DNA from: a virus
DNA: 64,000 bases
IMG/VR virus record: IMGVR_UViG_3300010399_000004
Coordinates: 23,740 to 87,739 of that record
Strand: one strand, 5' to 3'
Shown here: positions 553 through 62,489 of the stretch, piece by piece
Position numbering within the stretch: position 1 is the stretch's first letter
Layout: every line of letters starts with the position of its first letter
The notes under the pieces: generated by a model
The model's database searches: none
Told to the model about the DNA's origin: nothing
Seen by the model: only the letters and a program-made list of their open reading frames with translations
Translations under genes and position numbers: made by a program

Positions 553-570
553 TTTGAAAACTTTTCAAAA

Positions 571-843
571 ATGAAACCCGTCTTTTACATATTCACTCAA
601 GCATCGAAAAATGAATTTCGGATCAGAACGGATTCAAGGCAATATTATCCTTCTCTGAGTCATAGTAAAGGCAATACGGTAAAAACGCATCGGGCTGATG
701 TTATGATTGTTATGCAGAACGGGATGTTCATGGTGATCAAAGATAGGTCCGCTCATTTTCTTAGCAAAACAGGAGACGTAAGGGAAATACCCGCCCTTCT
801 TACTGAGATCAATGAATTCTATTTGAAAACTTTTCAAAAATGA
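571..843 (+). CDS. Hypothetical protein
   Basis: ORF coupled to next gene by ATGA overlap. Confidence 0.6.
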   Translation: MKPVFYIFTQASKNEFRIRTDSRQYYPSLSHSKGNTVKTHRADVMIVMQNGMFMVIKDRSAHFLSKTGDVREIPALLTEINEFYLKTFQK

Positions 844-1556
844 AACTGCTCAAAGCCCCCAATACTTATAAGCCCGGCACCTACGGGGGCTGGATTCTTT
901 CTATGTCGGAATCCAAGAGCAATCATATCCTGCCCAGCTACTACTCTGGAATGGTAAAGCCTAAAGGATTTATTCCCACGCTGCACGATAAGGATGGTCT
1001 GCTTTGGATGTCAGTAACGGTTATGGAGTTGGAGTCTCAGTTTCACCACAACGCAAATGCATTCGGAGACGTGATAGTTGCGGGGGCCGGACTATGCGTG
1101 CTCCCCTTCAACTTGCTCCAGAATCCCAAAGTGAATCACGTAACGATTCTGGAACGCTCTCCGGAGCTTTTTGATTCCTGGGGAGAACTTGTGGGTCTGT
1201 CGCAATGGAAACGGAGCGACAAGCTGACGCTAATCAATGTGGACGCTTTGCAGTGGGAGGGGAAATGTGATGTATTGCTGGCGGATATCTGGCTGGAAAT
1301 TGGGCATGAATCGTTGGAAGGGGATATGGAAACCTTTGTTCGCAGTATCAAGTTTAAGCGAATGATGTGCTGGGGAGCGGAGATTGCCTTTATTCATTGG
1401 GCCACGCAACGGGGTATTAACGCTTTCACGACTAAGGAGCATCACGCAAAGGAATGGAGCCGCCAGACCGGGCATTATGTTTGGCCAGGATTTCACATAG
1501 ACGCAACGAACGCAGCAACAACCGCCCTTACCGGCACAACTTATCCAAGAGCATGA
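840..1556 (+). CDS. Class I SAM-dependent methyltransferase-fold protein (spermidine-synthase-like)
   Basis: VIVAGAGLCVL motif I, VTILERSPE acidic motif II, INVDA, DVLLADIW. Confidence 0.65.
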   Translation: MKLLKAPNTYKPGTYGGWILSMSESKSNHILPSYYSGMVKPKGFIPTLHDKDGLLWMSVTVMELESQFHHNANAFGDVIVAGAGLCVLPFNLLQNPKVNHVTILERSPELFDSWGELVGLSQWKRSDKLTLINVDALQWEGKCDVLLADIWLEIGHESLEGDMETFVRSIKFKRMMCWGAEIAFIHWATQRGINAFTTKEHHAKEWSRQTGHYVWPGFHIDATNAATTALTGTTYPRA

Positions 1557-1813
1557 TTCCAACAGAAGCACAACAGGAAGCCATCGAAGCAGAGGAAAAG
1601 CGGCAAAGAAGTTTGCCCCGAGGCTGGCATCCAATCAAAGAGCTTGTCATAAATAAAAAAGGCAATGGTAATTGGATTTGGTCTGTCTTTTGGTTCTATA
1701 GAAAAGGAGGGTCAAGCTGCGAGAGTGCTTTGGCCTGTAAATCCAAATTCGGGGCGGAAATTCTGGCATGCATGCTTAACGATTCGGGGGTTAAACCTTA
1801 TACATCCCATTAG
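1553..1813 (+). CDS. Hypothetical protein
   Basis: ATGA-overlap start MIPTEAQ. Confidence 0.55.
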   Translation: MIPTEAQQEAIEAEEKRQRSLPRGWHPIKELVINKKGNGNWIWSVFWFYRKGGSSCESALACKSKFGAEILACMLNDSGVKPYTSH

Positions 1814-1814
1814 C

Positions 1815-2444
1815 ATGAAACAGTTCAACCCACCTTCCCTTCCAGATATAGATGTTGACTGTCTGAAAATCATTGCCAAGCGGGGCAATCAGACTTTCCA
1901 TTCATATCTGGACGATAGAATGTTTAGCGTGGCCGCGGCCTGGAATATTATTCTCAATGCACCCCGCCGACCGCTTTGGGCGGATATTGAACCCCTCCTT
2001 CCCGTTCTGCTGGAAGCGGACATTGACCGGGAGTATGCGGAAAATGAATTGCATCCCGGTATGGATACGGTTCCTGCTCTGGTGTATTTGGAAAAGAATG
2101 GGGAGGATCGCATCATTATTCTGGATGGCTGGCATCGTGTGTGGAATTGGTATAAACGGGGCGAGGATTGCTTACCCTGCTTTGTTTTGGAGCCGGGGGA
2201 AGCCGATGCTGCGGAGATTACAAGAGAACAGGGTGTAGCTCTTTGTTTGCCTTACCAGAAGGACTCAGAGACTCGTAATCATATGTCTCGTATCGTTTCT
2301 CGTAAGCTCAAAGCCGACCGCAGCGCGATTCATGAAATTATTTGCGGCGTTTTGGATGGGCAGGGAATATCCTGGGCAGCTACTACTGCAATCCGGAGAG
2401 GTATTGATCCCTATGCTTTGATTAATACATTGGCAAGCATCTAA
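1815..2444 (+). CDS. ParB/Srx-like N-terminal domain protein
   Basis: IILDGWHRV motif. Confidence 0.55.
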   Translation: MKQFNPPSLPDIDVDCLKIIAKRGNQTFHSYLDDRMFSVAAAWNIILNAPRRPLWADIEPLLPVLLEADIDREYAENELHPGMDTVPALVYLEKNGEDRIIILDGWHRVWNWYKRGEDCLPCFVLEPGEADAAEITREQGVALCLPYQKDSETRNHMSRIVSRKLKADRSAIHEIICGVLDGQGISWAATTAIRRGIDPYALINTLASI

Positions 2445-2450
2445 ATTTTT

Positions 2451-2843
2451 ATGGCTGATATACCTGAACTCTACCGCCGAATGGCGGAGTTAACTCTGTC
2501 GCACTGTCTCAAGTGCCCCACTAGATGCGCAACCAAGTGTTGCGATCCTGACTACTGTGCAATGGTGCCCAAGATAGCCAATGAGCGGGGGGAGCCAGTG
2601 CCCGCTACTACAGGACACTCCACGTTGCCATATATGGGGCCGTCCGGTTGCGTAGCTCCCCCACACCTGCGCCCCCTTTGCACTCTGCATTTGTGCGATA
2701 TCAACAGCGTGGGCTTTATTCGTAAACCAGCAGACAAAACGGGCCGAAAGGGGCCGGTGGACCTTGATGCCACTAACGATTACTTTGCACTTCGAGAAGA
2801 AATCAATGACGCAGAGTGCGCTAATGTGGAAAATATTATCTAA
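2451..2843 (+). CDS. Cys-rich hypothetical protein (possible CxxCxxCC Fe-S/Zn family)
   Basis: CxxC...C..CC...C and RPLC pattern. Confidence 0.55.
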   Translation: MADIPELYRRMAELTLSHCLKCPTRCATKCCDPDYCAMVPKIANERGEPVPATTGHSTLPYMGPSGCVAPPHLRPLCTLHLCDINSVGFIRKPADKTGRKGPVDLDATNDYFALREEINDAECANVENII

Positions 2844-2853
2844 GTTAAATATC

Positions 2854-3285
2854 ATGAAAATCGAATCCATTTGGTTCAAACCTTCGTTCAATATTTCTTT
2901 TTCGGGGGAGGAGTTGCGGGTAATGATTCACGTTGCGAGTAATCATTACGATGGCACATGCCGCCGGACTGTTATGGAAGAATGGCCGGATGCGTTTTTA
3001 TTGCAAGCTCAGAAAGCAGAGCAAAAGTTTCCTGGTGTGTCTTGTTCTTATTCCTGGAGAGACCTAGATTTGTTGGCCAAGATTCTTACAATTATAAATC
3101 ATGGATGCTTGGAAAGTGAAGCGGACCGTAGACTGGCGGGAGAGCTTTATGCTAAGATCAGCGGATTGATTCGGGAGCACAAAGTCATATCCGCTGAGGA
3201 TTTGAAAAGTTTTCAAATCAAAGCAATAAGGGGAACTCAGAACCCCGCCGAGGCTATACATATAATCAAAGGATTGAATCCATGA
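2854..3285 (+). CDS. Hypothetical protein
   Basis: ORF in operon. Confidence 0.55.
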   Translation: MKIESIWFKPSFNISFSGEELRVMIHVASNHYDGTCRRTVMEEWPDAFLLQAQKAEQKFPGVSCSYSWRDLDLLAKILTIINHGCLESEADRRLAGELYAKISGLIREHKVISAEDLKSFQIKAIRGTQNPAEAIHIIKGLNP

Positions 3286-3818
3286 CTGAGCCAGAAGTAA
3301 GAGAACGATTACTGGCCGCTCGCCGGGCAGAACTTGAAAAGGCTGCTATCGCTTACGAGTTTCACGCTGCTTCTATTGACCGGGGAAAGCATTCCGTAAT
3401 ACTGGAGAAGCTTTTGGCCACGGCCTACGAATATGGGGCAGCGTATAGAACCCGATTGGGGACTCCGTGCGATAACTGTCCGTGGGTTAGCGAGGTGGGA
3501 AGGAAGGTATTTAATAAGGAGGTAAAGGAAGCGGCGCGGCGGGGGGATGACTTTGTATGCCAGGGGCAAATGACAAGATGCTGGGGGGCTTTCCTATATG
3601 GCTTGGAATTACCTGCCCCCGCTTCCAAAGGTATGAGCATACTGGACCTGGCCGGGGCCGCAGAGGCTATAGGCGCAGCGCATGGGGACTTGGAAGTAGA
3701 ATGCCGGGGAAGTGATGGAGAACCGGCCCCTCTTCTGGATATAAGAGCGGAGCGTAGAAAGGACGGGAAGAAGGGTGCAAAGGTTGTTTTGTTCCTGGAT
3801 AGCGAATTGCCCGATTAA
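3282..3818 (+). CDS. Hypothetical protein with PCxxCPW...FxC motif (DUF6283-like)
   Basis: PCDNCPW and FVC; similar motif in the 61959 ORF. Confidence 0.55.
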   Translation: MTEPEVRERLLAARRAELEKAAIAYEFHAASIDRGKHSVILEKLLATAYEYGAAYRTRLGTPCDNCPWVSEVGRKVFNKEVKEAARRGDDFVCQGQMTRCWGAFLYGLELPAPASKGMSILDLAGAAEAIGAAHGDLEVECRGSDGEPAPLLDIRAERRKDGKKGAKVVLFLDSELPD

Positions 3819-3862
3819 AAATTTCCCCTTGCAAAAAATCCATTCTCACTTAATATATTCGT

Positions 3863-4141
3863 ATGTTTAAAGGATTCTATCACGGAGAAACAGAAAGCGG
3901 TCTGGCGCGGATACTTAGCCCGCGGGCCGATGGCCGTATTGTCTTTGTCCCTATTGATCGGACTTCACGATTCCGGAAGGTAGCAGTAAAGAATCCGGAG
4001 AAGGACGGAGCCGTATCCCTAAAAGAATGGAAGCCGGGGGGCAAACCATGTCATTGTATTTTCGATGTAGAGGGATGGCTCAAAAACAAGGATGATATGA
4101 AGGGGTTTGATGAAGCTGTTTTCGGAAAGGATTACGTTTGA
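3863..4141 (+). CDS. Hypothetical protein
   Basis: ORF after promoter; stop codon lies inside the palindrome. Confidence 0.6.
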   Translation: MFKGFYHGETESGLARILSPRADGRIVFVPIDRTSRFRKVAVKNPEKDGAVSLKEWKPGGKPCHCIFDVEGWLKNKDDMKGFDEAVFGKDYV

Positions 4142-4165
4142 AAACTTTTCAAAAGACCAATCATT

Positions 4166-4600
4166 ATGAATGCAGCCCTACGTCCCCCCCGCCGAACTCC
4201 GCCAGCAGCTTTAGCCGCCCTTCCCAAACCACCGCGGAGGGGAAGCCCGATAGCGCTGGAAGTTTACGCAGAGGAGATTCAGCCTGACATACAGCAGGAA
4301 CCGGAACCGGGAATCTTCCCCCTTTGCGGGGGCCTTACGGTTTTTGTTCGCAGGAGTAACAGTCTGGTAGCCAACTTCTCCATGCAGGGGCAAATCGACT
4401 CCCCGGAGCACGCAGAATCGCTTGCAAAGGAAAAGCTGGGCGGGGAGATCAATCTTGTTTGCATCGCCGCGGTGCGCCCCGGAAACCCCAATCTGACGCT
4501 GCCCTACGTAGCCCGCCCTTCTGATCCTTTGGTTACAGAGTTGAAGGAATCGTTTCTACGAATCAATGCGGCCTGCAATGCTTTGGGGTTTAAGAAATAA
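4166..4600 (+). CDS. Hypothetical protein
   Basis: ORF in operon. Confidence 0.55.
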   Translation: MNAALRPPRRTPPAALAALPKPPRRGSPIALEVYAEEIQPDIQQEPEPGIFPLCGGLTVFVRRSNSLVANFSMQGQIDSPEHAESLAKEKLGGEINLVCIAAVRPGNPNLTLPYVARPSDPLVTELKESFLRINAACNALGFKK

Positions 4601-4624
4601 GAGTGGCAAAAGAATGTCATTACA

Positions 4625-4861
4625 ATGAGTAATACAACATCAGACACACCACGCACCGATGCAGCCGCTGACTTTCCAGCAGGTCGGCATTGTGTTGATA
4701 TTAATGTATCAAGAGCGCTAGAAAGAGAACTCTCTAGTCTGCGGGACGCGACAATGGCTCTGATGGAGTGGGCTTCTGGGCCCGGTGGAGACTCATCTGT
4801 TTTACACCGCATCATCGCACAGGCTACTGCCGCTTTAGATAAAAATTCTTCTCCAAGGTAA
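4625..4861 (+). CDS. Hypothetical protein with DTPRTDA N-terminal motif
   Basis: Motif shared with 53652..54050. Confidence 0.55.
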   Translation: MSNTTSDTPRTDAAADFPAGRHCVDINVSRALERELSSLRDATMALMEWASGPGGDSSVLHRIIAQATAALDKNSSPR

Positions 4862-4869
4862 AATGTAAA

Positions 4870-5373
4870 ATGAGTGTTTATGTTGATGGAGAAGAGAACA
4901 GCTTTCGTGGGATGAAAATGTCTCACATGGTTGCCGATACTCTGGACGAGTTACATACTACGGCGGGGTATTTTACGCTAGATGGATTCAACACCATTGC
5001 TTACGTGATGGATGAAGAAAAACTTCCTTTGGACAAGTGGATTCACATAAGCCAGGGGGGAGTATTCGGAGAAGTATGGGAAAAGTTGTTTCAAGGCAGG
5101 GTGCCTATACCCATTTCCCTTTTGCAACTTAGGAACGCTTCCAACGATGTGCGCCATGCGGCCGGGCTTATTATTCTCTTCTTTGAAAAGACGGTGGAAG
5201 AGCGGGTGCCTATTTTCCTAAGAGAACCGGAGACACATCTTCATCCTGCGGAAGCGCGGTGCATAATGGGTATGATAAAAAAACTTCAATATTTCTGCGG
5301 AATTGCTTGCCGCGGGCCAAAGTTCGTCCCTAAACCGGTCCCAAAAGGCAGAAGATTGAATCTTGAAGTTTGA
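4870..5373 (+). CDS. Chimeric protein: DUF4031-like N-terminus plus ATPase Walker-B-like segment
   Basis: MSVYVD..SHMVADTLDELH followed by IFLREPETHLHP. Confidence 0.5.
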   Translation: MSVYVDGEENSFRGMKMSHMVADTLDELHTTAGYFTLDGFNTIAYVMDEEKLPLDKWIHISQGGVFGEVWEKLFQGRVPIPISLLQLRNASNDVRHAAGLIILFFEKTVEERVPIFLREPETHLHPAEARCIMGMIKKLQYFCGIACRGPKFVPKPVPKGRRLNLEV

Positions 5374-5388
5374 AAACTTTTCAAATCT

Positions 5389-5820
5389 ATGAATAAAGAA
5401 GATTGCCCGGATTGCGGGGGGACTGGATATCAATTCTTCCCTACTGTGAATCCAAAAGTTTCGGGGACTCACGCGTGTAAAACCTGCAAAGGGCAATCAG
5501 GTAAGGATTCAGTAGTGAAGAATCAACTGGCCCCAGCCCCTTCTATAGGAGGATTGAATCCCGGCCGTGTTGCGCAGCTTGTTCATGAATTCAAAATAGA
5601 AGTATGGAGATTGAAAGGAAGCATTGAACTGGATACCTGCGGCTGGTATGCTCTTATCTTTGGATGGACTTTGGCGCAGGGGGAAGATTTTGACGATTGC
5701 ATAGCCCTGGCGGAATACATACATGAAAACCTATTAAAACAATGCTCTACTCCAAATCAGAATGCGCAGAAGCCAGGAAAGAATGGGAAACTTCCGGAGG
5801 GCGAGGCTGGAAGTCTATGA
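5389..5820 (+). CDS. Hypothetical protein with DnaJ-like CxxCxGxG zinc finger
   Basis: CPDCGGTG, CKTCKG. Confidence 0.55.
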   Translation: MNKEDCPDCGGTGYQFFPTVNPKVSGTHACKTCKGQSGKDSVVKNQLAPAPSIGGLNPGRVAQLVHEFKIEVWRLKGSIELDTCGWYALIFGWTLAQGEDFDDCIALAEYIHENLLKQCSTPNQNAQKPGKNGKLPEGEAGSL

Positions 5821-6335
5821 GCGCGGATGAACAATCCTTATTGGTTATGGCAACTAATGAAAGAAAGCGAAAACTCCGGGACAGCGTTTTGACGGAGGAA
5901 GTTTTGCGGTCTTTTTGGAATTTGGTCGATAAGAAATATTTCGATAACAAGGAAGGAATATGGGAGGAGAATCATCCCTACGGAACTTGCACCTGGGTAA
6001 ATTCCTCGCCCTTCCGATGGATAGAGAAAGGAGCCAGAACAGTTGAGATTTATGGCGGAGACGAGAAAGCCTGTTCAGATTGTGGATTGACTACTACGCT
6101 GGGAATGATTACCGGGCATGACTGGCTGTTTGTAAGCGGGAGATGGCTTATAGATATATGGGCCTGGGCTTATCTCGGTGCCCCGCAATGTCTATATGAT
6201 CTTTGGGAGCCAACTCACGTGGCATGGGTTGACGTTCTGTATCCAAAGCGATGGGAACGAAACGAGAATGCAGAGAAGTGGTCTGCGTGGTTTGATCTTG
6301 CGGAAAGAGACTGGAATGAGTTATTGTCGAAATGA
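5742..6335 (+). CDS. Hypothetical protein (start uncertain)
   Basis: Trp-rich ORF coupled to next gene. Confidence 0.55.
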   Translation: MLYSKSECAEARKEWETSGGRGWKSMSADEQSLLVMATNERKRKLRDSVLTEEVLRSFWNLVDKKYFDNKEGIWEENHPYGTCTWVNSSPFRWIEKGARTVEIYGGDEKACSDCGLTTTLGMITGHDWLFVSGRWLIDIWAWAYLGAPQCLYDLWEPTHVAWVDVLYPKRWERNENAEKWSAWFDLAERDWNELLSK

Positions 6336-6766
6336 AAACCAAACCAAAATTACTAGCTGTTGATTTTGACGGCACTTGCGCGGTTTCCAGATTCCCGAAG
6401 ATAGGGGAACCAGTTCATCTGGCCATTGAATCCCTCCGATTTCTAAAGGAACGGGGCTGGAAGTTAATACTATGGACTGTTCGCAGCGGGCAGACTTTAG
6501 TGGAAGCAATGCAATGGGCATCGGATCGGGGAGTAGAATTCGACAGTGCCAATGTAAACCCGAATCAAGGCCGATGGTCTTCCAGCCAGAAAGCTTACGC
6601 CCCATTTTATGTAGATGACTCGGCGCTGGGCTGTCCCCTTCTTGAAGTCGGGAAAGACGTAATGGTTGATTGGTATTCTATAATGGAAATACTCAATATT
6701 CATTATCCGGAGGAAAGAATCGGGGCTTGGCTTACAAAGAAAATTATAGTGAAATCTAACGAATAA
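6332..6766 (+). CDS. HAD-superfamily phosphatase-like protein
   Basis: AVDFDGT motif I, ILWTVR motif II, YVDD motif IV. Confidence 0.85.
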   Translation: MKTKPKLLAVDFDGTCAVSRFPKIGEPVHLAIESLRFLKERGWKLILWTVRSGQTLVEAMQWASDRGVEFDSANVNPNQGRWSSSQKAYAPFYVDDSALGCPLLEVGKDVMVDWYSIMEILNIHYPEERIGAWLTKKIIVKSNE

Positions 6767-6770
6767 CATT

Positions 6771-7016
6771 ATGGGGCTCTATACAGAAAAAATGAAAGAA
6801 GAACAGAAGGCGAAGTCCGATGCCTTTCTCAAGAAGTTATCGGCCGCAGAGCATCCCTCTGCGAAGGTTCCGGACGCGGAAACAAAAAGGTGCATCGGGT
6901 GTTGGGGTAAGAAATGGAGAGTGGACCCGATAACTGGAATTTGTGGATTGTGTTCGCGCTGCAACGGCGCCGGATTCCTCTGCCTGCGGAACCCGTCCAC
7001 AGGGCAGAAGGAATAA
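6771..7016 (+). CDS. Small zinc-finger protein
   Basis: CxxCxG..CxxCxG. Confidence 0.5.
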   Translation: MGLYTEKMKEEQKAKSDAFLKKLSAAEHPSAKVPDAETKRCIGCWGKKWRVDPITGICGLCSRCNGAGFLCLRNPSTGQKE

Positions 7017-7071
7017 GCTTGCTCCTTTCAGTTTAGTGATTTAGTCTGCGGGTCACTACACACTAATATTT

Positions 7072-7425
7072 ATGGACAGAGAAGAAGCACACCCCCTTCA
7101 TTTGCGTTGCGAAGCTCAGGCCAAAGAGAATTCTGATCTTTGGGTTATCATTGATATCTTGCAGGCCGCATTGCGGCGGACTGAACAATTCATGCCACAG
7201 GATGGAAGGCGGCAGGATGTATTTACCCCGCAAGTTGTATTGGCTTTGTTTGCTCGGCAAACCAGTGTTCCTGCGGGAATGTCTTCTCTGCGGATCAGCC
7301 GTAAGTTTTATAATGAAGAGGGGGATGTTGTAGGAACAGAGTTAAGTCGGGCTGGTTTGAATACACCTTTTGTTATTGGGATTGGCCCTGATTCTCCTTT
7401 GGTTACAAGAATAGAAATTTGTTGA
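7072..7425 (+). CDS. Hypothetical protein
   Basis: ORF. Confidence 0.55.
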   Translation: MDREEAHPLHLRCEAQAKENSDLWVIIDILQAALRRTEQFMPQDGRRQDVFTPQVVLALFARQTSVPAGMSSLRISRKFYNEEGDVVGTELSRAGLNTPFVIGIGPDSPLVTRIEIC

Positions 7426-7426
7426 T

Positions 7427-7849
7427 ATGAAACTTTCTTCTTTGAATCCCCAATTTTACAGATACGACCGCCGTATGACGGATGTAGAATTATGCGTAGG
7501 GGATCAGGCTACGTGGAGGGAACGGGGATGTCCAACAGAGAAGAAAAAGGAACTGCGGGACTATCGAATTCCTGTAAATAATATAGAGGAAGCCCAATGC
7601 GTATGGTTTCAATGCCCTAAATGTGTGAGGGAAAAGGGAACCGTGGTTGGGTGTCATTTTGTTGAAGTTACTTTTGCTGACAGGGGAGTTCTGCCTGGGC
7701 AGGGAATCAAAAACAAATCGGGGGAGGATATTCGTTGGAACATAAGCGGAACAAACTATAACGATCTTACGGTTACCCCTTCGGTTCTAATCCAAGGAGG
7801 CTGCGGCTGGCATGGATTTATAACCGCGGGCGAGGTTTCCATAATCTGA
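7427..7849 (+). CDS. DUF6527-like protein
   Basis: FQCP...LTVTPSV..CGWHGFITAG. Confidence 0.55.
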   Translation: MKLSSLNPQFYRYDRRMTDVELCVGDQATWRERGCPTEKKKELRDYRIPVNNIEEAQCVWFQCPKCVREKGTVVGCHFVEVTFADRGVLPGQGIKNKSGEDIRWNISGTNYNDLTVTPSVLIQGGCGWHGFITAGEVSII

Positions 7850-7921
7850 CGCTATGCAAAGAAAGTCTTTTAGCTTGAATAGCCGTATCTGTTGTGCTAA
7901 AAGCGTTTGAAAACTTTTCAA

Positions 7922-10992: not shown

Positions 10993-10997
10993 ATATT

Positions 10998-55069: not shown

Positions 55070-56350
55070 ATGAGCCTTGGCCGTCAATTTATTCAAGCGG
55101 TCATAAGGGATTCTACTCCCACGCTGCTTAGGCAGTCCGGGGTGGGATTGTTTCTGGAAGAGGAATTGGCTTTGTATCAATTCGTGGAAATGCATTATCT
55201 TGCACATCACGCATTGCCCGATTCTTCTGTGCTATCGGGGGCCGGGTTTCATTTACCCGCGCTTACCTCCTCGCAGCCTGTATCCTATTTCCTGACCAGA
55301 CTGCGGCAGCGGTTTATATACAATACGGTAGCTGGAAAGTTAACAACTCTTACAACGGCCCTGGCTTCTCAGGATACGGAGGCAATGGTTGATCTTTTGC
55401 GGGGGACGTTATCGGAGATTGGTTCCGCGGCGCATTCTCACTCTGTGGTTTTGATCGGGGATGAAATGGATGGAGTGCTTGATGACTTTGAGATAGCCAG
55501 AACCCACTTCGGTTTGCGGGGAATAACGATGGGTTGGCCTACGCTGGATGCGGCTACGCTGGGAGCTTCTGGGGGGGACTTGATAGTAATAGCCGGCCGG
55601 CCTGGGCTCGGAAAGTCATATGCGCTACAGGAGATGGCATATGCAGCGTGGCTCAACTCTCACCGCCTTCTATTTCTTTCGATGGAAATGGGTAAAAGGC
55701 AGATGAGTATAAGATGGTTGGGAAGACATACAAGATTGAACCCAAAGCTGATACGTTCTGGACAGCTTTCTCCCTGGGGCCGGCAAATGCTGCATGAAGG
55801 CGTTGCGCAGATAAAAGGAGCTACAGGGAGAATGTATTTGGAGAGCGGACAGGATACCCGCAAGGTATCGCAATTGGAGGCACTGGTGTTGCAGTATGGT
55901 CCGGAAGCCCTTTATGTGGATGCTGCTTACCTGATGAGTTCCGAGGGAAAGAAAAAGGGATATGTCAGCAGGTGGGAATCCCTTGCCGAAGTTATTGGAG
56001 AGTTGAAGGCGTTGGCTATCCGATTCAATATTCCTATCTTCATTACGGTTCAGTTTAACAGGAATCAAAAAAACCGCAGTATGCGTGGGGAGCCTGATCT
56101 ATCCGATATTGCAGGGACGGATTCCATTCCGCAGGATGCTTCTATTGTGTTGGGAATTCAGAAACCCCCTGCTCCCCATGCGGATAACAGAAGGATCATG
56201 ACCATGATGAAAAATCGGGAGGGCGATCTATGTCGCTTTCTTTATAGGTATGAATTCCAGCCCGTAAACTTTGAAGAGCTTCCCTGGGAGGCTATGGAAC
56301 CTGATGAAGAAACGGAAGCAGAGGAAGCCGGAACTGCTTGGCAGCAATAA
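55070..56350 (+). CDS. dnaB: Replicative helicase, DnaB family
   Basis: GITMGW..LD, IAGRPGLGKS, SMEM, QFNR, IPQDA, KNREG. Confidence 0.93.
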   Translation: MSLGRQFIQAVIRDSTPTLLRQSGVGLFLEEELALYQFVEMHYLAHHALPDSSVLSGAGFHLPALTSSQPVSYFLTRLRQRFIYNTVAGKLTTLTTALASQDTEAMVDLLRGTLSEIGSAAHSHSVVLIGDEMDGVLDDFEIARTHFGLRGITMGWPTLDAATLGASGGDLIVIAGRPGLGKSYALQEMAYAAWLNSHRLLFLSMEMGKRQMSIRWLGRHTRLNPKLIRSGQLSPWGRQMLHEGVAQIKGATGRMYLESGQDTRKVSQLEALVLQYGPEALYVDAAYLMSSEGKKKGYVSRWESLAEVIGELKALAIRFNIPIFITVQFNRNQKNRSMRGEPDLSDIAGTDSIPQDASIVLGIQKPPAPHADNRRIMTMMKNREGDLCRFLYRYEFQPVNFEELPWEAMEPDEETEAEEAGTAWQQ

Positions 56351-56354
56351 AAAT

Positions 56355-57104
56355 ATGAAACTTTTTTGTGGAGATTGTTTGCAGCAGATGAATCATTTGG
56401 CTCCGAGATCGGTTGATCTTGTATTGAGCGATCTTCCTTACGGGACTACACAGTGTAAATGGGATTCTATAATTCCATTGATTCCACTATGGAAGGGTAT
56501 TTTGCGCATACTAAAGCCTGCGGGGGCGGTCGTATTGACTTCGGCGCAGCCCTTTACTTCTATATTAGTGTGTAGCAATCTTAAAATGTTTCGATATGAT
56601 TGTGTATGGGTAAAGGATAGGGCCACCGGGCATCTCAATGCTGGCAGAAGTCCAATGAGAAGGCATGAAAGCATTCTTGTCTTTGCACATAGAAGAGAGA
56701 AGATAACATTCAATCCTCAGCTTATTGCGGGGGCTGCTTCTACGGCTATAGGAGCATTTCGGGGGTATGGCGGGCATAAAAATAAGGCATCGCAGATTTA
56801 TGGTGTAGCTGGCGGACATAAGAGCAAGCAGTGGAATGCAAAGATAAATCCACACTCGGTGTTATATTTCAATTCTGTCCCTTCCAGACCTATACGACTT
56901 CATCCGACACAGAAACCAGTTGATTTGGCTCGCTATCTGATTAGGACTTACAGTAATAGTGGGGATGTTGTTTTGGATGTTGCTATGGGATCAGGTTCAT
57001 TCGGAGAAGCCGCTCTTCTTGAAGACAGAGGGTTTATTGGGATAGAAAAAGATCAGGCTATATTCGATATAGCTTGCAATCGTTTGAAAACTTTTCAAAA
57101 CTGA
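56355..57104 (+). CDS. DNA amino-methyltransferase, beta class
   Basis: GDCL, DLPYG, HPTQKP, LDVAMGSGS, FIGIE. Confidence 0.92.
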   Translation: MKLFCGDCLQQMNHLAPRSVDLVLSDLPYGTTQCKWDSIIPLIPLWKGILRILKPAGAVVLTSAQPFTSILVCSNLKMFRYDCVWVKDRATGHLNAGRSPMRRHESILVFAHRREKITFNPQLIAGAASTAIGAFRGYGGHKNKASQIYGVAGGHKSKQWNAKINPHSVLYFNSVPSRPIRLHPTQKPVDLARYLIRTYSNSGDVVLDVAMGSGSFGEAALLEDRGFIGIEKDQAIFDIACNRLKTFQN

Positions 57105-57297
57105 GGATGCGGGCAAGATTTTACTTTACAGAGTATCTATTTTGTGTATAATTCCATTATATGAAGACCAAACTTAAGAAAGAACCATTCATCAGTGACC
57201 CTGTTTATGCATTTTTGGCAAGTAAGTGTCCTGCGTTTGCAAGGGACCTTAAACGGGTGCTTGCAAACCAAAAAAAGCGGACTGAAAAAGCAGACTA

Positions 57298-60200
57298 ATG
57301 AGCGTTATATATTCAACGGGTAATCTTAGGAATCCAAAGGTTGTAGTTGTCTGCGATATTCCAACGGTCAAGGCTTATGCCGCGGGCCATGCAATGTCAG
57401 TGGCCTGCATGGATAAGTTCCGGGAGGAAGCGGAGCGGAGTGGATTCGTGAAGGATGACTTTGCATTCGTTATTCCGGCCCCGCCGATGTCAGAGCACGA
57501 TGCAACTTCGGAAGCACGGACTAATGCATTCCTGGATGGCCACCGGCCGCTATTTATGGCTACGCTGAATGGGCTCCTTTCTAAAGGTCCGGCCCTGTTG
57601 ATGTATTGCGGGAAGCACGCGGGGAGGCAGGTAATGGGCAAGACAATCCAGATAACAAAAAAGCGGGGGCAGATTCATAATGAAGAAGGATTCAACATCC
57701 CCGTCCTTCCTATGTTATCGCCGGGGAATGTTCTGCGCCGTCCCGAGGTTGCAGAAACCTTTGAGACGGATTTCCGGCTGGCGGGAGCATTTAAGGAAGC
57801 GGGATGGAGTCTCCGGGGCTACAGCAACAGCAGATTGCGGGGGGAGTATAAATGGTGCCTTGATTTAGAGGAAGAGATTGATTTAGATAATCCTCCCGAA
57901 GCTATAGCTTTGGATGTTGAAACAAAGGGATTGAAGTGGTATGATCCTTCCTTCCGGGTTTTGACTATACAACTTTCCTGGGCTCACGGACAGGGAATCA
58001 TTCTGCCGATAGATATCAATTATTTCAACGATGATTCGTTGCGGGGGGTTTCTACTATCGGTATGCCAAAGATAGGCAGGAGGGACCGGGAACGAATGCT
58101 AAAACAAGTGCGCAGATTATTGGCAGATAAAAGAGTAAAGGTATGCGGCGCGAACCTCAAGTTTGATCTTCATGCATTGAAAAACCTGGATATTGAAGTT
58201 GCTTGTTGGCAGCATGATACTGTTCAATTGGCTTTCGTCTGTGACGATAACATGCAGCAGAAAGCTTTGTCCGAATGCGTTAGGCGATGGATACCCAGCA
58301 TGGCCGGATATAGTGATAATTTTGATAGGGAAATTGACAAGTCCATGATGGATAAAGTTCCTCATGACAAGATGCTCCCATACGCAGCCGGCGATACGGA
58401 CGTAGCGCGGAGGTTGACTTTGATACTTGTAAAGCTGGCAAAAGAGGACCCGCAGAATTATCGCTGCTATACAAGGATTCAGATGCCGGCCCTTCGACAA
58501 TTCTTTAGAATAGAGCGGGAGGGATTATATACCGATCAACCTGATTTGCTGACGCTTGGGAATGTAATTGGAGAACAGATAGAGGAAATCAACAATGCTC
58601 TATTGAATACCGGAAGGTTGAATGAGGATGGAACGGTTCTATATGCTCCTGTGTCAGCCAAAGTAAAAAGGAGGCAATTGGAATTGACCGAAAATAAACT
58701 TGATCCGGAGGATGCTTTGAGTTTTACGCGGGCGGATTTCATTATTGATGTTTTATTCTCCCCAAAGCGGGAAGGGGGTCGGGGGCACGTTCCGGTTGTA
58801 TTCACAGACACGACCGCGGCCCTTGATCCATCGGAACGGGTCCCTTCCACTTCTGCCAAACACCATCTTATCTATTTTGATGAAGACCCATTTGTAGGAG
58901 ACTTAACGGATTTGATCCGTCTCCGTAAGCTGCAATCTACTTATGTAGGATTGCCGGAAGGATATGAATATCGCCCGGTTAAGTTATTGAAGAATGGAAA
59001 GTTTCAGAAAGCTGCGCAGGATATTATAACGGCTAAGGAATTGAATGTAACCTATCAGGAAGCTCCGGGGGGAGAACCGGAAGCGGAGCACATGGCTTTC
59101 GATGTAAAGGAAAACGTGGCTTTCGTTCTTGATCTTCATGGAAGACCGCTATGGAGAGATTACCGCCCCCCTTCTGGATTCTGGCAGCATTTGGCCCCGG
59201 ATTCAAAGATTCACCCTGGATTCTATCTGGACAGAACTGTCACTGGAAGATCCGCTAGTAAAGATCCTAACGGACAGAACATACCAAAGCGCGGTAGGAC
59301 TCCTAGACTTAAAATCTTGGTATCATCATATAGGAAAATATTCAAAGCAAGGCCGGGGTGGATATTGCTGGAAGTGGATTTAAGTCAGGCGGAGCTTAGA
59401 CTAGTTGCATGGATGGCCAGAGAAAGAACTATGCTCAAGGTTTATAAGGATGGGGGGGATATTCATGCTACAACTGCTGCCAATGCATTAAAGATTACTA
59501 TGGCACAGTTCAATGCCTTATCTAAGGATGATCGCTTTATGTATCGCTATCACTCTAAGGCTAGGAACTTTGGTCTATGCATAGCTGAGGGGCAGAGTGT
59601 TCTTACTCAAGTAGGAGAAATACCTATTGAAAAAGTTAAGGATTGGCATTTATTATGGGATGGACAAGAATGGATCAAACACGAAGGAGTCATATTCAAA
59701 GGTTATAAGAAGGTCATTACCTGGGACGGAGTTACTGCTACCCCAGACCATAAAGTCTGGGCAGAGGAAGGGAGGATGCTTTCCCTGCGGGAAGCTTCAT
59801 CCGAAGTATGTCCCCTTGCAAGAACGGCGACGGCAGATGGCATCCCTGTCCGTTGGAACGCTGACTTTAAGACTGAGAACTTTGAAAAGGGAAGGAAGCT
59901 ATTGGGTAATAAATGGAAAATGCAAAGCTTGTGGAAACGTATGGGTGTTGTCTTGCAACAATCTATATTCAGGAAAAACAAAAAATTGTCGTTGTCAGAG
60001 GCACAGGAAATATCCACAGGACGGGAGAGCGGAAACTCTCGGGCAAAGATACGATTCTATGATTCAGCGTTGCAGACGGGATACGCACGTATCGTCTCAC
60101 AATTACAAAGGGAGAGGGATAAAAGTATTGTTCGAGAGCAGAGAGGATTTCATATGGTGGGCATTAAAGAAGTTCCCGGAGACAGATTTCAAGGGGTTGG

Positions 60201-60963
60201 ACTTCGACAGGGAGAACAACGATGGTCATTATTCCAAGGAGAATCTCAGGCTAGTTACTCGGAAGGAAAATCTAGCGAATACACGACCAAGGAAGAAGCG
60301 GGAGCGGTGCGCGTTTACGATATAATTAACGCTGGCCCCAGAAGGCGATTTACATGTCAGGGTAGGTTAGTATCCAATTGTTACGGAATGTGGTGGAAAT
60401 CCTATCGCACATATGCAAGGACTGACTACGGTATTCATATATCAGAATCTCAGGCTAAACAAGAATGGGATGATTTCTTTGAGCTTTACAGCGATCTTCC
60501 CCGGTGGCACACAAAGATGAAAAACATTGCTAAACAGCATGGATTTGTGCGGGCATTGCACGGGGCTTTGCGCCGCCTTCCCGCGATTAATTCTAACGAT
60601 GAAAAGGTGCAGAGGGATGCGGAACGTATGGCAATCAACAGCCCCATCCAGCGCTTTGCTTCGGACCTTGGATTGATGGGAATGAGCATATTTGCAGAGC
60701 ACTGCCCCTGGGAGATTATGCACCCGCTGGGATTCATTCACGACGCCACGGTAATCGAAGCGCGGGAGGAGTATGCAGACGAAGCGATGGGGGCGATGAA
60801 ATGGATTTTGGAAAACCTCCCCCTTCTGGAGTGGTTTGACCTTGACCCCCCGCTTCCGATTCTGGCGGATGTATCCTGTGGCCCATCCCTCGGGGAGTTG
60901 GAGGAACGTCCTGATATTCAGGCAGTTCGGCCGGAGTGGCTGCCGGAAAATTGGAAGGTTTGA
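57298..60963 (+). CDS. polA: Family A DNA polymerase with N-terminal UDG-like domain, 3'-5' exonuclease and intein
   Basis: ALDVET, NLKFD, YAAGD exo; TVTGR.S..PNGQNIP, DLSQAELR, K.RNFG[intein]YG, IHD. Confidence 0.95.
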   Translation: MSVIYSTGNLRNPKVVVVCDIPTVKAYAAGHAMSVACMDKFREEAERSGFVKDDFAFVIPAPPMSEHDATSEARTNAFLDGHRPLFMATLNGLLSKGPALLMYCGKHAGRQVMGKTIQITKKRGQIHNEEGFNIPVLPMLSPGNVLRRPEVAETFETDFRLAGAFKEAGWSLRGYSNSRLRGEYKWCLDLEEEIDLDNPPEAIALDVETKGLKWYDPSFRVLTIQLSWAHGQGIILPIDINYFNDDSLRGVSTIGMPKIGRRDRERMLKQVRRLLADKRVKVCGANLKFDLHALKNLDIEVACWQHDTVQLAFVCDDNMQQKALSECVRRWIPSMAGYSDNFDREIDKSMMDKVPHDKMLPYAAGDTDVARRLTLILVKLAKEDPQNYRCYTRIQMPALRQFFRIEREGLYTDQPDLLTLGNVIGEQIEEINNALLNTGRLNEDGTVLYAPVSAKVKRRQLELTENKLDPEDALSFTRADFIIDVLFSPKREGGRGHVPVVFTDTTAALDPSERVPSTSAKHHLIYFDEDPFVGDLTDLIRLRKLQSTYVGLPEGYEYRPVKLLKNGKFQKAAQDIITAKELNVTYQEAPGGEPEAEHMAFDVKENVAFVLDLHGRPLWRDYRPPSGFWQHLAPDSKIHPGFYLDRTVTGRSASKDPNGQNIPKRGRTPRLKILVSSYRKIFKARPGWILLEVDLSQAELRLVAWMARERTMLKVYKDGGDIHATTAANALKITMAQFNALSKDDRFMYRYHSKARNFGLCIAEGQSVLTQVGEIPIEKVKDWHLLWDGQEWIKHEGVIFKGYKKVITWDGVTATPDHKVWAEEGRMLSLREASSEVCPLARTATADGIPVRWNADFKTENFEKGRKLLGNKWKMQSLWKRMGVVLQQSIFRKNKKLSLSEAQEISTGRESGNSRAKIRFYDSALQTGYARIVSQLQRERDKSIVREQRGFHMVGIKEVPGDRFQGVGLRQGEQRWSLFQGESQASYSEGKSSEYTTKEEAGAVRVYDIINAGPRRRFTCQGRLVSNCYGMWWKSYRTYARTDYGIHISESQAKQEWDDFFELYSDLPRWHTKMKNIAKQHGFVRALHGALRRLPAINSNDEKVQRDAERMAINSPIQRFASDLGLMGMSIFAEHCPWEIMHPLGFIHDATVIEAREEYADEAMGAMKWILENLPLLEWFDLDPPLPILADVSCGPSLGELEERPDIQAVRPEWLPENWKV
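59578..60378 (+). mobile_element. Intein in PolA motif B
   Basis: NFGL/CIAEG...ATPDH...VYDIINAG..VSN/CYG. Confidence 0.9.
59837..60325 (+). CDS. HNH endonuclease in an alternative frame inside the intein
   Basis: CKACG..NNL.SG.TKNCRC, Y.SM.QRC, NYKGRGI.V, DREN.DGHY..EN.R.VT..EN..N. Confidence 0.85.
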   Translation: MASLSVGTLTLRLRTLKREGSYWVINGKCKACGNVWVLSCNNLYSGKTKNCRCQRHRKYPQDGRAETLGQRYDSMIQRCRRDTHVSSHNYKGRGIKVLFESREDFIWWALKKFPETDFKGLDFDRENNDGHYSKENLRLVTRKENLANTRPRKKRERCAFTI

Positions 60964-61237
60964 AAAGATTTCAAAATTTCACTTTACAAAGTATCCCTTT
61001 CGAGTATTCTTGATCCGTAATCCAAATTCAAATGAACACTTCAAAGATTTACAAATTCTGCCGCCACATCGGACCGGGGGGCGTGACTTGCCCTTGCTGC
61101 GCCCTCGGACCCCTCAAGAAGACTAAGACGGCGCTGAATCGCGCTTTCCGCCGCAAGACTCGCCAAGAGCTTCGGGGAGATGATTCCTAATCGCCCATTT
61201 GGGCACAACAAAAACACAAACAGAAAATCAAAATACC

Positions 61238-61675
61238 ATGAGCACTGCTACAACCAAGCCAGCCCGCCGGGCCATCAATACAGACTCCAAACTCAACGTC
61301 CCGGAGGACGTTCTCAATGACGCACGGGAATTTTATCTGGCCAACAAATTGGCCAACGAAGCCTCCCGGAAAGCGGAAGCTGCTCGTGCCCGTCTTTTCA
61401 AAGGCATGAGGGATGCCGGGGTTACATCCTTCGACGTTGGGGCCAATACCGATTCCGGGGCCATCATTCTCCAGGCGGTTATCAAGCCGGGCCGGAGCAC
61501 GACGGTGATTGATGTGGTAAAGCTCCGTAAGGAGTTGAAGGATGACGCCGCATTCCTAAAGGTTGTGTCCGCGACTAAGACTTCCGTGGAAACTCATTGC
61601 GGAACGGCGATGGTTGATTTGTGCGGGTCTGTGGTGCCGGGGGATGAAGCGGTTTACGTCAATCCCAAAAAGTGA
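61238..61675 (+). CDS. Hypothetical protein
   Basis: ORF followed by palindrome and terminator. Confidence 0.65.
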   Translation: MSTATTKPARRAINTDSKLNVPEDVLNDAREFYLANKLANEASRKAEAARARLFKGMRDAGVTSFDVGANTDSGAIILQAVIKPGRSTTVIDVVKLRKELKDDAAFLKVVSATKTSVETHCGTAMVDLCGSVVPGDEAVYVNPKK

Positions 61676-61694
61676 TTTGAAGACTTTTCAAAAC

Positions 61695-61730
61695 GGGGCG
61701 GAGTCTCAACAAGGCTCCGCCCCTTCTTTT
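61695..61730 (+). terminator. Intrinsic terminator
   Basis: GGGGCGGAG/CTCCGCCCC plus TTCTTTT. Confidence 0.8.
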
Positions 61731-61958
61731 CCAATAGCGGGGCTGGAAGATTTCACGAAACGCAGAGAAACACACCCATGAATACCCCCTAACACACCAC
61801 ACCCCACATCCCTTCTTTATGAGCTTTGACATTTATGACATTAACTCGCATACTTCCGCTACTAAGAGGAAGGAACGGTTGCGCAGGGGCCGGAATATCC
61901 TTTTAGCTTTGGCTGTAATGTGGGGCCTGGTCTTCTTAATTGCTTGGCTGATTTTTCG

Positions 61959-62489
61959 ATGAGCGCATGTCTTAAACCATGTAAGAGTTGCCCCTGGCGC
62001 AGAGATAGCCGGGCCGGGGCAATCGCGGGGCCGGAAGGACCTGGGCTTACTCCGTTGGAAGGAGATACGTGGACAGGAATGGTAGCTCAGGCCCACGCCG
62101 CCTTTTGGCTCCCATGTCACTCCCGCATGGACCCCGATAAGGGCAAAGATCAGGACCCTGAAAAAGTAACCCCTTGTGTGGGGGCGGGGATTTACCGCAC
62201 GCATATAAACAGGGACCCGCGGCTGGCCAACGATAAATGCCCTCATTATCCGGCCAATAAGGAATTGGTATTCTCGGACCCTGTTGAATTTCTGATGCAC
62301 CATGCAGGTATGATAAAGGAGTGTGCGCAGAAAGAAACCAGTCCAATGAGGATGAGGCTATATATCGAAGCCGAGTTTCGCCGGGCTCAGGGAAAATTGA
62401 TAGCCGTGGACAGGGTTACTGGTAAGGTTTTGGAACTTGGCAGGGATATGAGTGAGGAGCTTTTGAAATCTTTTCAAAATGGCCAGTAA
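61959..62489 (+). CDS. PCxxCPW protein (DUF6283-like)
   Basis: PCKSCPWRR, PCH, C.GA. Confidence 0.6.
   Translation: MSACLKPCKSCPWRRDSRAGAIAGPEGPGLTPLEGDTWTGMVAQAHAAFWLPCHSRMDPDKGKDQDPEKVTPCVGAGIYRTHINRDPRLANDKCPHYPANKELVFSDPVEFLMHHAGMIKECAQKETSPMRMRLYIEAEFRRAQGKLIAVDRVTGKVLELGRDMSEELLKSFQNGQ

Follow-up and report, generated by a model that had tools for sequence, protein, structure and literature searches.

A dispersed, evenly spaced 17-bp palindrome in a complete viral genome as a candidate operator array with lineage-specific counterparts in related siphoviruses

The stretch of DNA analysed here (the window, 64,000 nt) covers bases 23740-87739 of the complete 87,739-bp virus record IMGVR_UViG_3300010399_000004, and a 17-bp palindrome, TTTGAAAASTTTTCAAA, recurs along its whole length between and within genes for terminase, 7-deazaguanine synthesis, portal, capsid, an AAA ATPase, a replication-initiator-like protein and DNA polymerase. 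The record is a single virus sequence with overlapping ends, classed in IMG/VR as carrying direct terminal repeats and as 100% complete; approximately 130 bp are repeated at both contig ends (positions 1-130 of segment L083 and ~63870-64000 of the window), which is consistent with a circular assembly or a terminally redundant genome. Coordinates refer to the window unless marked "genome", and those given for L083 are in genome numbering and lie outside the window. Genes were called in this analysis as simple open reading frames (ORFs) with a codon score, and gene boundaries in relatives are longest-ORF calls. The phage is from soil, a soil metagenome being its probable source. Almost all genes are on the plus strand, the GC content is 48%, and the GC skew is positive throughout the whole sequence with no switch point. 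Megablast of positions 1-20000 against named phages gave zero matches, Pfam searches of the small ORFs of the genome gave almost none, and no relative was confirmed in IMG/VR with the portal as query.

The first-pass annotation had described 23 exact and eight one-mismatch copies of the palindrome, about one per 2 kb. Indeed, exact matching in the window returned 23 copies (the first at 553-569) and none in any of 100 dinucleotide-preserving shuffles (mean 0.00, maximum 0), and a search tolerating up to two mismatches returned 31 sites, comprising the 23 exact copies, eight with one mismatch and none with two (the last at 62462-62478; shuffles, mean 0.05 and maximum 1), confirming every copy at its position. 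The whole genome contains 45 sites (34 exact, ten with one mismatch and one with two), corresponding to one per 1.95 kb. The motif is an 8-1-8 dyad whose positions 1-17 are near-invariant, with flanks close to background and no T-run. Its symmetry is broken only by the centre base, which is C or G in 43 of the 45 sites, and by rare variants at position 1, at positions 7, 8 and 10 beside the centre, and at the centre. The centres of the half-sites TTGAAA and TTTCAA are separated by 9 bp, approximately one helical turn, and the 17-mer folded as RNA reaches -2.5 kcal/mol (z = -0.45), no better than shuffled sequence.

The copies are spaced more evenly than chance, the coefficient of variation (CV) of the gaps being 0.61, as against 0.97 when positions are drawn at random (P = 0.0002) and 0.88 when gene junctions are (P = 0.0008). 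Read on the strand of the genes, 26 of all sites have a C centre and 17 a G centre, a non-significant difference; of the 13 sites that have a good ATG no more than 25 nt away, 11 are C-centred and 2 G-centred (binomial P = 0.02; Fisher's test versus the rest, P = 0.045), and at one of these two G-centred sites the ATG actually lies in frame inside the initiator gene. The orientation bias of the centre base is modest.

Most copies had been assigned to gene junctions, which is a fair description given that at 24 of the 45 sites the stop codon of the upstream gene falls between -30 and +25 nt relative to the site start. Across the genome, nine stops end at +5, where the TGA of the motif itself is used, five are at 0 ± 1 nt, and two are at +22, where an ATGA overlap follows the motif. 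The use of this TGA as stop codon, put forward for six genes, holds for all of them, as evidenced by coding-scored ORFs of at least 50 codons ending at +5 of 4137, 5369, 26445, 29955, 54046 and 60959. The distance to the next start codon ranges from -1 nt to more than 100 nt. Ten of the 45 copies are located inside called ORFs, eight of them well inside and two in the last 11 nt, and the rest at or between genes. The four intragenic copies named in the first-pass annotation (3201, 15489, 19860 and 52680) are all within called ORFs, and the one at 15489, for which an LKSFQ-like peptide in queD had been noted, encodes YLKSFQ in an ORF of the PTPS/QueD family (Pfam E = 1e-27). As had also been claimed, sites are present in structural and replication regions as well as in early-looking ones. 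Three minus-strand genes have a good score, namely 51560-51877 (-), which encodes a DUF3310 protein, 28390-28842 (-), and 6376-6951 (-) of segment L084; two of the three face a G-centred palindrome over a divergent spacer. The sites and the genes of the candidate binding proteins discussed below are collected in Table 1.

Table 1 Copies of the palindrome in the window and genes of candidate binding proteins
Feature	Position	Strand	Description
Palindrome	553-569		exact, centre C; junction; upstream stop ends at site start; ATG 1 nt after
Palindrome	822-838		exact, centre C; junction, C-terminus of ORF 571-843 (ends 22 nt from site start); ATG 1 nt after
Palindrome	3201-3217		exact, centre G; within ORF 2764-3285
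Palindrome	4137-4153		exact, centre C; TGA is stop of ORF 3863-4141; ATG 12 nt after
Palindrome	5369-5385		exact, centre C; TGA is stop of ORF 4870-5373; ATG 3 nt after
Palindrome	7906-7922		exact, centre C; immediately before gene (224 codons) upstream of terminase; ATG overlaps last site base
Palindrome	11274-11290		exact, centre C; 18 nt past stop of ORF 10950-11255
Palindrome	15489-15505		exact, centre G; within queD (PTPS family)
Palindrome	16958-16974		exact, centre C; 1 nt past folE stop, 72 nt before portal ATG
Palindrome	19860-19876		one mismatch (centre T); within ORF 19471-20409
Palindrome	21055-21071		exact, centre C; junction before ORF 21082-21921
Palindrome	23681-23697		exact, centre C; 31 nt past terminator 23598-23650, 120 nt before major capsid ATG
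Palindrome	26445-26461		exact, centre C; TGA is stop of ORF 26030-26449
Palindrome	28947-28963		exact, centre G; between ORF 28390-28842 (-) and plus-strand ORF from 28990; TTGACG-16-CACAAT 26 nt downstream
Palindrome	29397-29413		one mismatch, centre C; starts at last stop base of ORF 28990-29397
Palindrome	29955-29971		exact, centre C; TGA is stop of ORF 29435-29959
Palindrome	35875-35891		exact, centre C; intergenic, tail region
Palindrome	40818-40834		exact, centre G; 126 nt upstream of AAA-ATPase operon
Palindrome	44161-44177		one mismatch, centre G; in repeated promoter cassette, TTTACA-16-TATTCT at 44186-44213
Palindrome	45100-45116		exact, centre G
Palindrome	46360-46376		exact, centre C; 4 nt past terminator 46305-46356, 7 nt before TTGCAA-16-TATGGT
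Palindrome	47375-47391		one mismatch, centre G; 7 nt before TTGACC-16-TATTTT (47399-47426)
Palindrome	48510-48526		exact, centre C; 41 nt past terminator 48431-48469; promoter cassette (48533-48560)
Palindrome	49699-49715		one mismatch, centre C; junction of ORF 49334-49693 and ORF 49719-51356
Palindrome	52062-52078		exact, centre G; then ~22 nt A/T-rich, then TTGCAA; upstream of initiator-like gene
Palindrome	52680-52696		exact, centre G; within initiator-like gene
Palindrome	54046-54062		exact, centre G; TGA is stop of ORF 53652-54050
Palindrome	57083-57099		exact, centre C; last 22 nt of ORF 56271-57104; 25 nt before TTTACA-16-TATAAT (57125-57152)
Palindrome	60959-60975		one mismatch, centre G; TGA is DNA polymerase stop; promoter cassette (60983-61010)
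Palindrome	61676-61692		one mismatch, centre C; right after stop of ORF 61199-61675, right before terminator 61695-61723
Palindrome	62462-62478		one mismatch, centre C; C-terminus of ORF 61920-62489; ATG directly after site
Replication-initiator-like protein	52303-53655	+	450 amino acids; PHROG 'replication initiation O-like', E = 2.6e-5
PHROG 'transcriptional regulator'	genome 3029-3553 (outside window)		PHROG_19880, E = 1e-9
ParB-like protein	11387-12238	+	PHROG ParB-like, E = 3.5e-24; beside 7-deazaguanine genes

A sigma70-like -35/-10 pair follows 12 of the 45 sites at a distance of 3-30 nt, with a score that 4.2% of random positions attain; about a quarter of the copies thus stand some 6-25 nt ahead of such a promoter. 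Six of the 12 (window 553, 16958, 28947, 47375 and 57083; genome 15623) stand alone, and the others belong to six near-identical copies of a ~60-nt cassette consisting of the palindrome, 6-8 nt, TTTACA, 16 nt and TATTCT (window 44161-44213, 48510-48560 and 60959-61010; L083 9632-9690, 11396-11450 and 17156-17215), three of which share the same G-A variant of the palindrome. This cassette looks like a portable early-promoter unit. A type IB topoisomerase gene (L083 9961-10896, genome; Pfam Topoisom_I, E = 2.6e-17, with a bacterial Top1B N-domain) directly follows one promoter cassette.

The sites never overlap a -35 or -10 box and lie at least 5 nt upstream of the -35 boxes. A hairpin scan revealed six terminators of -25 to -28 kcal/mol in the genome, four of which are directly upstream of a palindrome (genome 9573-9617 before 9632, and those before the window copies 23681, 46360 and 48510), with a promoter 6-7 nt after the palindrome at three of the four; after the remaining palindrome, 23681, before the capsid gene, no good sigma70 match was recognised. 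Little transcription is expected across the terminator-linked copies, suggesting that the element works as DNA, at least there. At 52062-52140 and at L083 212-290 the palindrome is followed by an A/T-rich stretch of ~22 to ~40 nt and then by TTGCAA, and the two regions align over 344 columns with 68% mean column identity. These A/T-rich units, which precede the initiator operon (52062) and the helicase/RecA operon (genome 212), could be promoters or unwinding elements.

The palindrome was rejected as an intrinsic terminator on account of its weak hairpin and the lack of a T-run in its flanks, compared with the real terminators above, and as the -35 box of a promoter of its own because no -10-like element lies at a fixed distance. 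It was likewise dismissed as a promoter for a phage RNA polymerase or sigma factor, given that Sigma70_r2 and Sigma70_r4 have no match, that some copies end 0-3 nt before an ATG and that no fixed -10 exists; among the Pfam families RNA_pol, Sigma70_r2 and Sigma70_r4 no match was obtained in the genome, of which the RNA_pol result is uninformative because the RNA_pol control was silent everywhere.

In IMG/VR the exact motif was found in 76 stretches, most of them with one chance match, of which six are relatives by tblastx (L001, L007, L014, L023, L033 and L054), with ~55-70% amino-acid identity in terminase, portal and capsid, a GC content of 52-54% and different flanks. In these same-motif relatives the same 17-mer, exact or with one mismatch, stands upstream of the portal and capsid genes as it does here (copies upstream of portal homologues at L014 3606, L023 1805 and L033 3781), and in several cases TTGACA, TTGACG, TTGCAA or TTGCAC, accompanied by a -10 box, stands 5-8 nt beyond the copy. 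The relatives pair their palindromes with promoters of unrelated sequence, and ahead of the capsid gene they have both a palindrome and a promoter.

With DnaB as probe, two near-complete syntenic contigs, G001 (70.7 kb) and G002 (78.3 kb), and 13 further loci were retrieved, the latter with DnaB identities of 37-53% and GC contents of 41-64%. Almost every relative found in this way carries its own multi-copy palindrome, in which the TTG...CAA frame is retained and both arms are changed together: WTTGMAC-NNN-GTKCAAW in G001 (16 sites), TTGCAA-NNN-TTGCAA in G002 (17 sites), the same core as here in L233 (15 of 17 bases searched), TTGACCG-W-CGGTCAA in L234, TGCACG-N(1-2)-CGTGCA in L235 and L236, TTGCAC-NNN-GTGCAA in L238 and L241, TGCAAC-W-GTTGCA in L237 and L240, TTGCAC-GATC-GTGCAA in L243 and TTGCAA-ACC-GTGCAA in L245. 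Reversed-pattern controls in the variant-motif relatives gave 0, and no multi-copy palindrome was seen in L242.

Positional conservation in relatives, proposed by the first-pass annotation as a check, is indeed observed, as copies are kept at the portal and capsid genes in the same-motif relatives and at the AAA, polymerase and initiator positions despite the change in sequence. A copy is found 22-126 nt upstream of the AAA-ATPase operon in seven of 14 loci, namely six of 13 relatives (22-114 nt) and this genome, at the end of the DNA polymerase gene or shortly beyond it in seven of the 13 loci that have this gene, and inside the initiator ORF in ten of 14 loci. G001 site 27629 lies directly after the stop of the orthologue of ORF 29435-29959, and G001 site 34529 just upstream of the orthologue of ORF 21082-21921. 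The gaps in G001 and G002 are even (CV 0.48 and 0.49). Relative to the genes, the asymmetric arm TTTGCAC is on the left in seven G001 sites and on the right in one, all four asymmetric variants of L245 have one orientation, and the centre in L237 is A in seven sites versus T in two. In seven of the 16 G001 sites an RNA stem would have a C-U mismatch in its middle, an argument against an RNA hairpin. In G002 (L206 14064-14110 and 2358-2400) the palindrome after the polymerase gene is followed by two to three direct repeats of ATAGTTTGCAA with an 11-nt period, which resemble an iteron-like cluster of half-sites. A string of genes for the AAA ATPase, a protein of ~220 amino acids, a DUF1257 protein, a Cys-containing protein of ~65 amino acids and a protein of ~119 amino acids has the same order in 13 relatives; here it occupies 40961-44776 and 48843-49693, interrupted by a candidate array resembling transfer RNAs and by a Cpn10 (GroES-like) gene at 46685-47026.

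Judged by DnaB, the closest named phages (33-35% identity) are those of Aeromonas, Rhizobium and Rhodobacter, which share with this genome the gene order AAA ATPase, initiator-like, loader, DnaB and DNA polymerase and, further on, helicase, regulator and RecA. Rhizobium phage vB_RleS_L338C contains 47 copies of TGCAAC-NN-GTTGCA in 109.6 kb, Aeromonas phage HJ05 contains 16 copies of this form in 79.1 kb (gene-strand centre TG in eight, CG in seven and CA in one), and Rhodobacter phage RcKickapoo contains 20 copies of TGCAATCGATTGCA in 94.1 kb, with controls of 0 for all three. In the annotated 41-kb stretch of L338C, eight of 15 copies are intergenic according to its table of coding sequences, and four precede TTGACA or TTGCCA promoters. 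The gaps of L338C are even (CV 0.60, P < 0.0002), and even spacing was not found in RcKickapoo (CV 1.15) or HJ05 (CV 0.76, not significant). Related phages, some of them cultured, carry the same or a lineage-specific TTG...CAA palindrome, often at the same junctions, which is new: none of the papers searched describes palindromes of this clade or the motif strings in a phage context, and the main text of the RcF-cluster paper (PMC8601537) has 0 occurrences of 'palindrom', 'inverted repeat' and 'repeated sequence'. Microcystis phage Mvi-JY20 (L082), a distant capsid relative, has a ~26-bp palindrome of its own, AAAAACTTTGAAACTTCAAAGTTTTT, in seven mostly intergenic copies in 40.7 kb (1548, 11358, 13828, 14228, 14266, 22908 and 33786); its half-site is TTTGAA as here, but its arms are A/T runs with a terminator-like look. 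A cyanobacterial host, suggested by the capsid match to Mvi-JY20 (29% identity) and by DUF1257, was discarded, as synteny is with the Rhizobium, Rhodobacter and Aeromonas phages.

Taken together, we favour the reading that the palindromes form an operator array, in which each site would be bound by a dimer of a co-evolving phage-encoded protein and which has been kept with lineage-specific sequences across a clade of large siphoviruses, and we put its probability at roughly 0.55. Protein binding, the identity of the binder and an effect on transcription are here read from sequence and from its comparison among relatives. The part of the first-pass proposal that stands is that of sites for a dimeric DNA-binding protein, to which the sharp 8-1-8 dyad, the weak RNA hairpin, the location in terminator-promoter spacers and the concerted arm changes at kept positions all point. 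A dimer bound just upstream of sigma70-type promoters, where several copies separate an intrinsic terminator from the -35 box, may modulate host RNA polymerase; it might assist weak late promoters, among them that of the capsid gene in this genome, and might insulate strong early promoters or damp them. That the capsid promoter of this genome retains its palindrome without a recognisable -35/-10 pair, which its relatives have together with the palindrome, fits such an activator-type role. The evenly spaced junction and intragenic copies could be auxiliary sites, serving as polar roadblocks, as anchors for loops or as a reservoir of the protein.

The initiator-like protein is the favoured candidate for the binder, judging from its distribution and divergence, and would in that case double as a genome-wide regulator. 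It is present in all 15 loci compared, and its counterpart in RcKickapoo is annotated as a protein with a helix-turn-helix (HTH) DNA-binding domain. In a Mantel-type test of motif distance against protein distance, controlled for DnaB distance in 14 related taxa, initiator divergence follows motif divergence with a partial rho of 0.57 (permutation P = 0.0005) and a signal that peaks at approximately residues 240-340, compared with 0.41 for the loader (P = 0.0005) and 0.34 for the polymerase (P = 0.013); co-variation with the motif was not significant for five neighbouring families (AAA, fam6, DUF1257, small65 and fam3). Near DnaB, the initiator-like protein, the probable loader, DnaB itself, the 119-amino-acid protein, the polymerase and a DUF7173-near protein are present in all or nearly all relatives. 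The last is encoded by a gene of 158 amino acids after the polymerase, which Atlas places near DUF7173 clusters with a score of 0.95, only 19-35% of whose members have the family, and is a lead only. PDB sequence searches with four core proteins of unknown function gave no significant match.

As second candidate after the initiator-like protein we consider the PHROG_19880 regulator, which occurs in every relative in which its region is covered, including RcKickapoo (gp80). It has a basic N-terminal stretch, and its G001 orthologue, the only one with an AT-hook match (E = 0.05), also shows a weak excisionase/MerR-like HTH. As a determinant of specificity it is weakened by the recognition helices of L234 and L238, which are near-identical when the motifs differ, and by a partial rho of ~0. 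The ParB-like protein, named as a candidate by the first-pass annotation, is disfavoured, as a homologue is present in only one of five palindrome-bearing relatives and ParB_N was not detected (Pfam searches of the genome for HTH_3 and ParB_N gave no match), and the HeH and small HTH proteins named with it were not located. The neighbouring 7-deazaguanine cluster (12114-16956) has Pfam matches to QueC, PTPS/QueD, radical-SAM (QueE-like) and GTP cyclohydrolase I, and two putative DpdA ORFs had no Pfam match; DpdB is a ParB-like protein. A link between the palindromes and the DpdA genes was rejected, since G001 and G002 have palindromes and no blastp match to the DpdA ORFs.

Several observations weigh against an operator array for a phage-encoded dimer or against the initiator as its binder. 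The orientation biases (11:2 here, 7:1 in G001 and 8:1 in HJ05) are not predicted for a symmetric dimer, and half of the 12 promoter-linked sites (six) belong to a single repeated cassette and are hence not independent. No promoter is recognisable near more than half of the sites, at 61676 the palindrome precedes the terminator instead of following it, and copies 0-3 nt before a start codon make a role in transcription initiation impossible there, so that their function is a guess. The distance from palindrome to -35 box, which in this genome and its relatives takes values of 5-9, 12, 16, 19-23 and ~62 nt, is a misfit with a fixed activator geometry. The palindromes could also simply occupy whatever non-coding DNA is free. 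As for the binder, the co-variation test is crude (14 related taxa, crude motif distances and longest-ORF calls) and may reflect shared ancestry, the signal of the initiator was not clearly reproduced on adding the three cultured phages, whose low bit scores are uninformative, and the co-variation of the PHROG_19880 regulator with the motif, measured in ten taxa, is absent.

The even spacing and the link to the initiator would also suit sites of replication, that is, dispersed origins or helicase-loading sites bound by the initiator, at which the promoter link would be incidental or serve transcription-primed initiation. The initiator diverges in step with motif type, most loci have a copy within the initiator ORF, much as gene O contains the lambda origin, copies 52062 and genome 212 are followed by ~40 nt of A/T-rich DNA, and G002 has its tandem half-site repeats after the polymerase gene. 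We nevertheless regard this explanation as unlikely, because no cluster of three to five iterons exists anywhere in the genome, 45 origins in 88 kb would be without known precedent, the placement of the copies is linked to -35 boxes and to the stop and start codons of genes, and the uniformly positive GC skew shows no switch. Somewhat less probable still is silencing of the stoperator type, in which a repressor on all copies would block elongating RNA polymerase in lysogeny, pseudolysogeny or a temporal switch. Many near-identical sites in short intergenic gaps across a genome, with an orientation bias relative to transcription, are the pattern described for stoperators in PMC4351075; the sites here are, however, palindromic rather than asymmetric, overlap no -35 or -10 box and include four copies just past strong terminators, where little transcription is left to block, and neither Phage_integrase nor Resolvase has a match in the genome. 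Between stoperator-like repression and genome organisation, both proposed in the first-pass annotation, even spacing and the modest orientation bias fit either, yet the lack of promoter-core overlap and of an integrase or resolvase match stands against the former. Organisation of the chromosome, with the sites loading or anchoring a ParB-, KorB- or Noc-like or other nucleoid protein that compacts, segregates or shields phage DNA, would account for the even spacing and for sites in all modules, including inside genes, and a ParB-like gene is present; we rate it as improbable in view of the restriction of that homologue to one of five palindrome-bearing relatives, beside 7-deazaguanine genes, of the undetected Pfam ParB_N, and of the lack of an SMC-type or ParA partner among the ORFs scanned, neither of which was specifically searched for.

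The position of copies between stop and start codons, the preference for C in the sense-strand centre of start-proximal sites (11:2) and the A/C-rich leaders between palindrome and ATG in relatives could be taken for an RNA element, a transcribed hairpin for processing, stabilising or translation control between cistrons. Such an element is very unlikely, as the hairpin is no better than in shuffles, nearly half of the G001 sites (7/16) carry the C-U mismatch, several copies lie between a terminator and a promoter, and every stem position is conserved instead of pairing alone. The A/T-rich motif occupies about -43 to -59 in the promoter cassettes, the region in which a UP element sits, so that a host regulator or a polymerase subunit (contact with the C-terminal domain of the alpha subunit, as at a UP element) might recognise it. 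We consider this host-factor site the least probable of all, since relatives have G/C-rich versions in the same places (L234 and L237), and no bacterial stretch with more than one motif copy was found among the 120 matches listed. The hijack of a host regulator raised by the first-pass annotation is disfavoured for the same kind of reason, the motif varying by lineage and phages of Rhizobium and Aeromonas sharing one form, and a Chi-like, host-specified signal was rejected because the same form occurs in phages of different host classes.

Features of inteins or homing elements were noted in three core genes of the window. The terminase large subunit (8593-10992) has LAGLIDADG and Hint matches, the AAA ATPase (40961-43441) an intein-splicing domain and an HNH match, and the DNA polymerase (57298-60963) an insert of ~285 amino acids separating two polymerase segments; all of these look like inteins or homing elements.

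Returning to the operator array for a phage-encoded dimer, a bolder version of it, which we hold to be possible and rather doubtful, is that the initiator acts as a genome-wide regulator and organiser, binding an evenly spaced array of 16-47 palindromes, co-evolved across phages of different bacterial classes, and coupling replication, promoter use and read-through. Eukaryotic DNA viruses have proteins such as E2 and EBNA1 that are both initiators and transcription factors, and the initiator-regulator, if real, would be their counterpart in a bacterial virus. Should the replication initiator prove to be the binder, replication and global transcription would be linked in a manner unusual for a phage. 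The concerted drift of both arms at fixed junctions, the even spacing and the recurrent order terminator, palindrome, promoter provide handles on the mechanism, and since cultured members exist, the binder and its effect are directly testable. The array is also a practical marker with which the clade may be recognised and sub-typed in metagenomes.

Among known systems, lambda O is a dimeric initiator that binds palindromes of ~18-19 bp, four of them clustered at one origin inside the initiator gene. A palindrome copy inside the initiator gene is shared with our genome; here, however, it is a single copy, with the nearest other 618 bp away and ~44 more dispersed, in place of clustered tandem sites at one locus flanked by A/T-rich DNA, and a correlation (partial rho 0.57, P = 0.0005) suggests that the initiator may bind the sites. 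KorB, a ParB-family protein, binds the operators (O_B) of plasmid RK2, and the conserved inverted repeats (CIR) of the temperate Streptomyces phage phiC31 bind its repressor. Like O_B and CIR, the element is a short palindrome repeated around a mobile genome, presumably for one global regulator, both near and far from promoters. Unlike in KorB-O_B and ParB-parS, no conserved ParB-family protein accompanies the palindromes here.

Genome-wide repeated operators are known from a few groups of actinobacteriophages, among which only stoperators are known to have a function; none is given for the Cluster O repeats in a paper of 2015 (PMC4351075). An array of the same kind is now seen in large siphoviruses, including cultured Rhizobium, Rhodobacter and Aeromonas phages. 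The stoperators of Cluster A are asymmetric sites of 13-14 bp for a monomeric immunity repressor in temperate phages, one of them over the early promoter (PMC4351075). They resemble the present array, as far as that source describes them, in comprising dozens of near-identical sites in short intergenic gaps over the whole genome, with specificities that diverge between lineages and an orientation that, given a modest bias here, may be related to transcription, and differ from it in that our sites are palindromic and upstream of -35 boxes, with no integrase found. The closest published parallel is offered by the Cluster O mycobacteriophages, which carry 17-bp dyad repeats, TGTTCGGNNNCCGAACA, of unknown function, with 34 copies in Corndog, and whose authors predicted a dimeric DNA-binding protein and saw no meaningful orientation (PMC4351075). 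Sequence, host phylum and phage lineage differ, the centre is 1 nt here versus 3 there, and a modest orientation bias is seen here; lineage variants at conserved junctions, even spacing and the order terminator, palindrome, promoter are not reported for Cluster O in the part of that paper available. In both cases a dyad of 17 bp occurs in more than 30 near-invariant and dispersed copies, many of them intergenic and others in genes (approximately a third for Cluster O), in the genome of a non-temperate-looking siphovirus in which SigA-type promoters are present.

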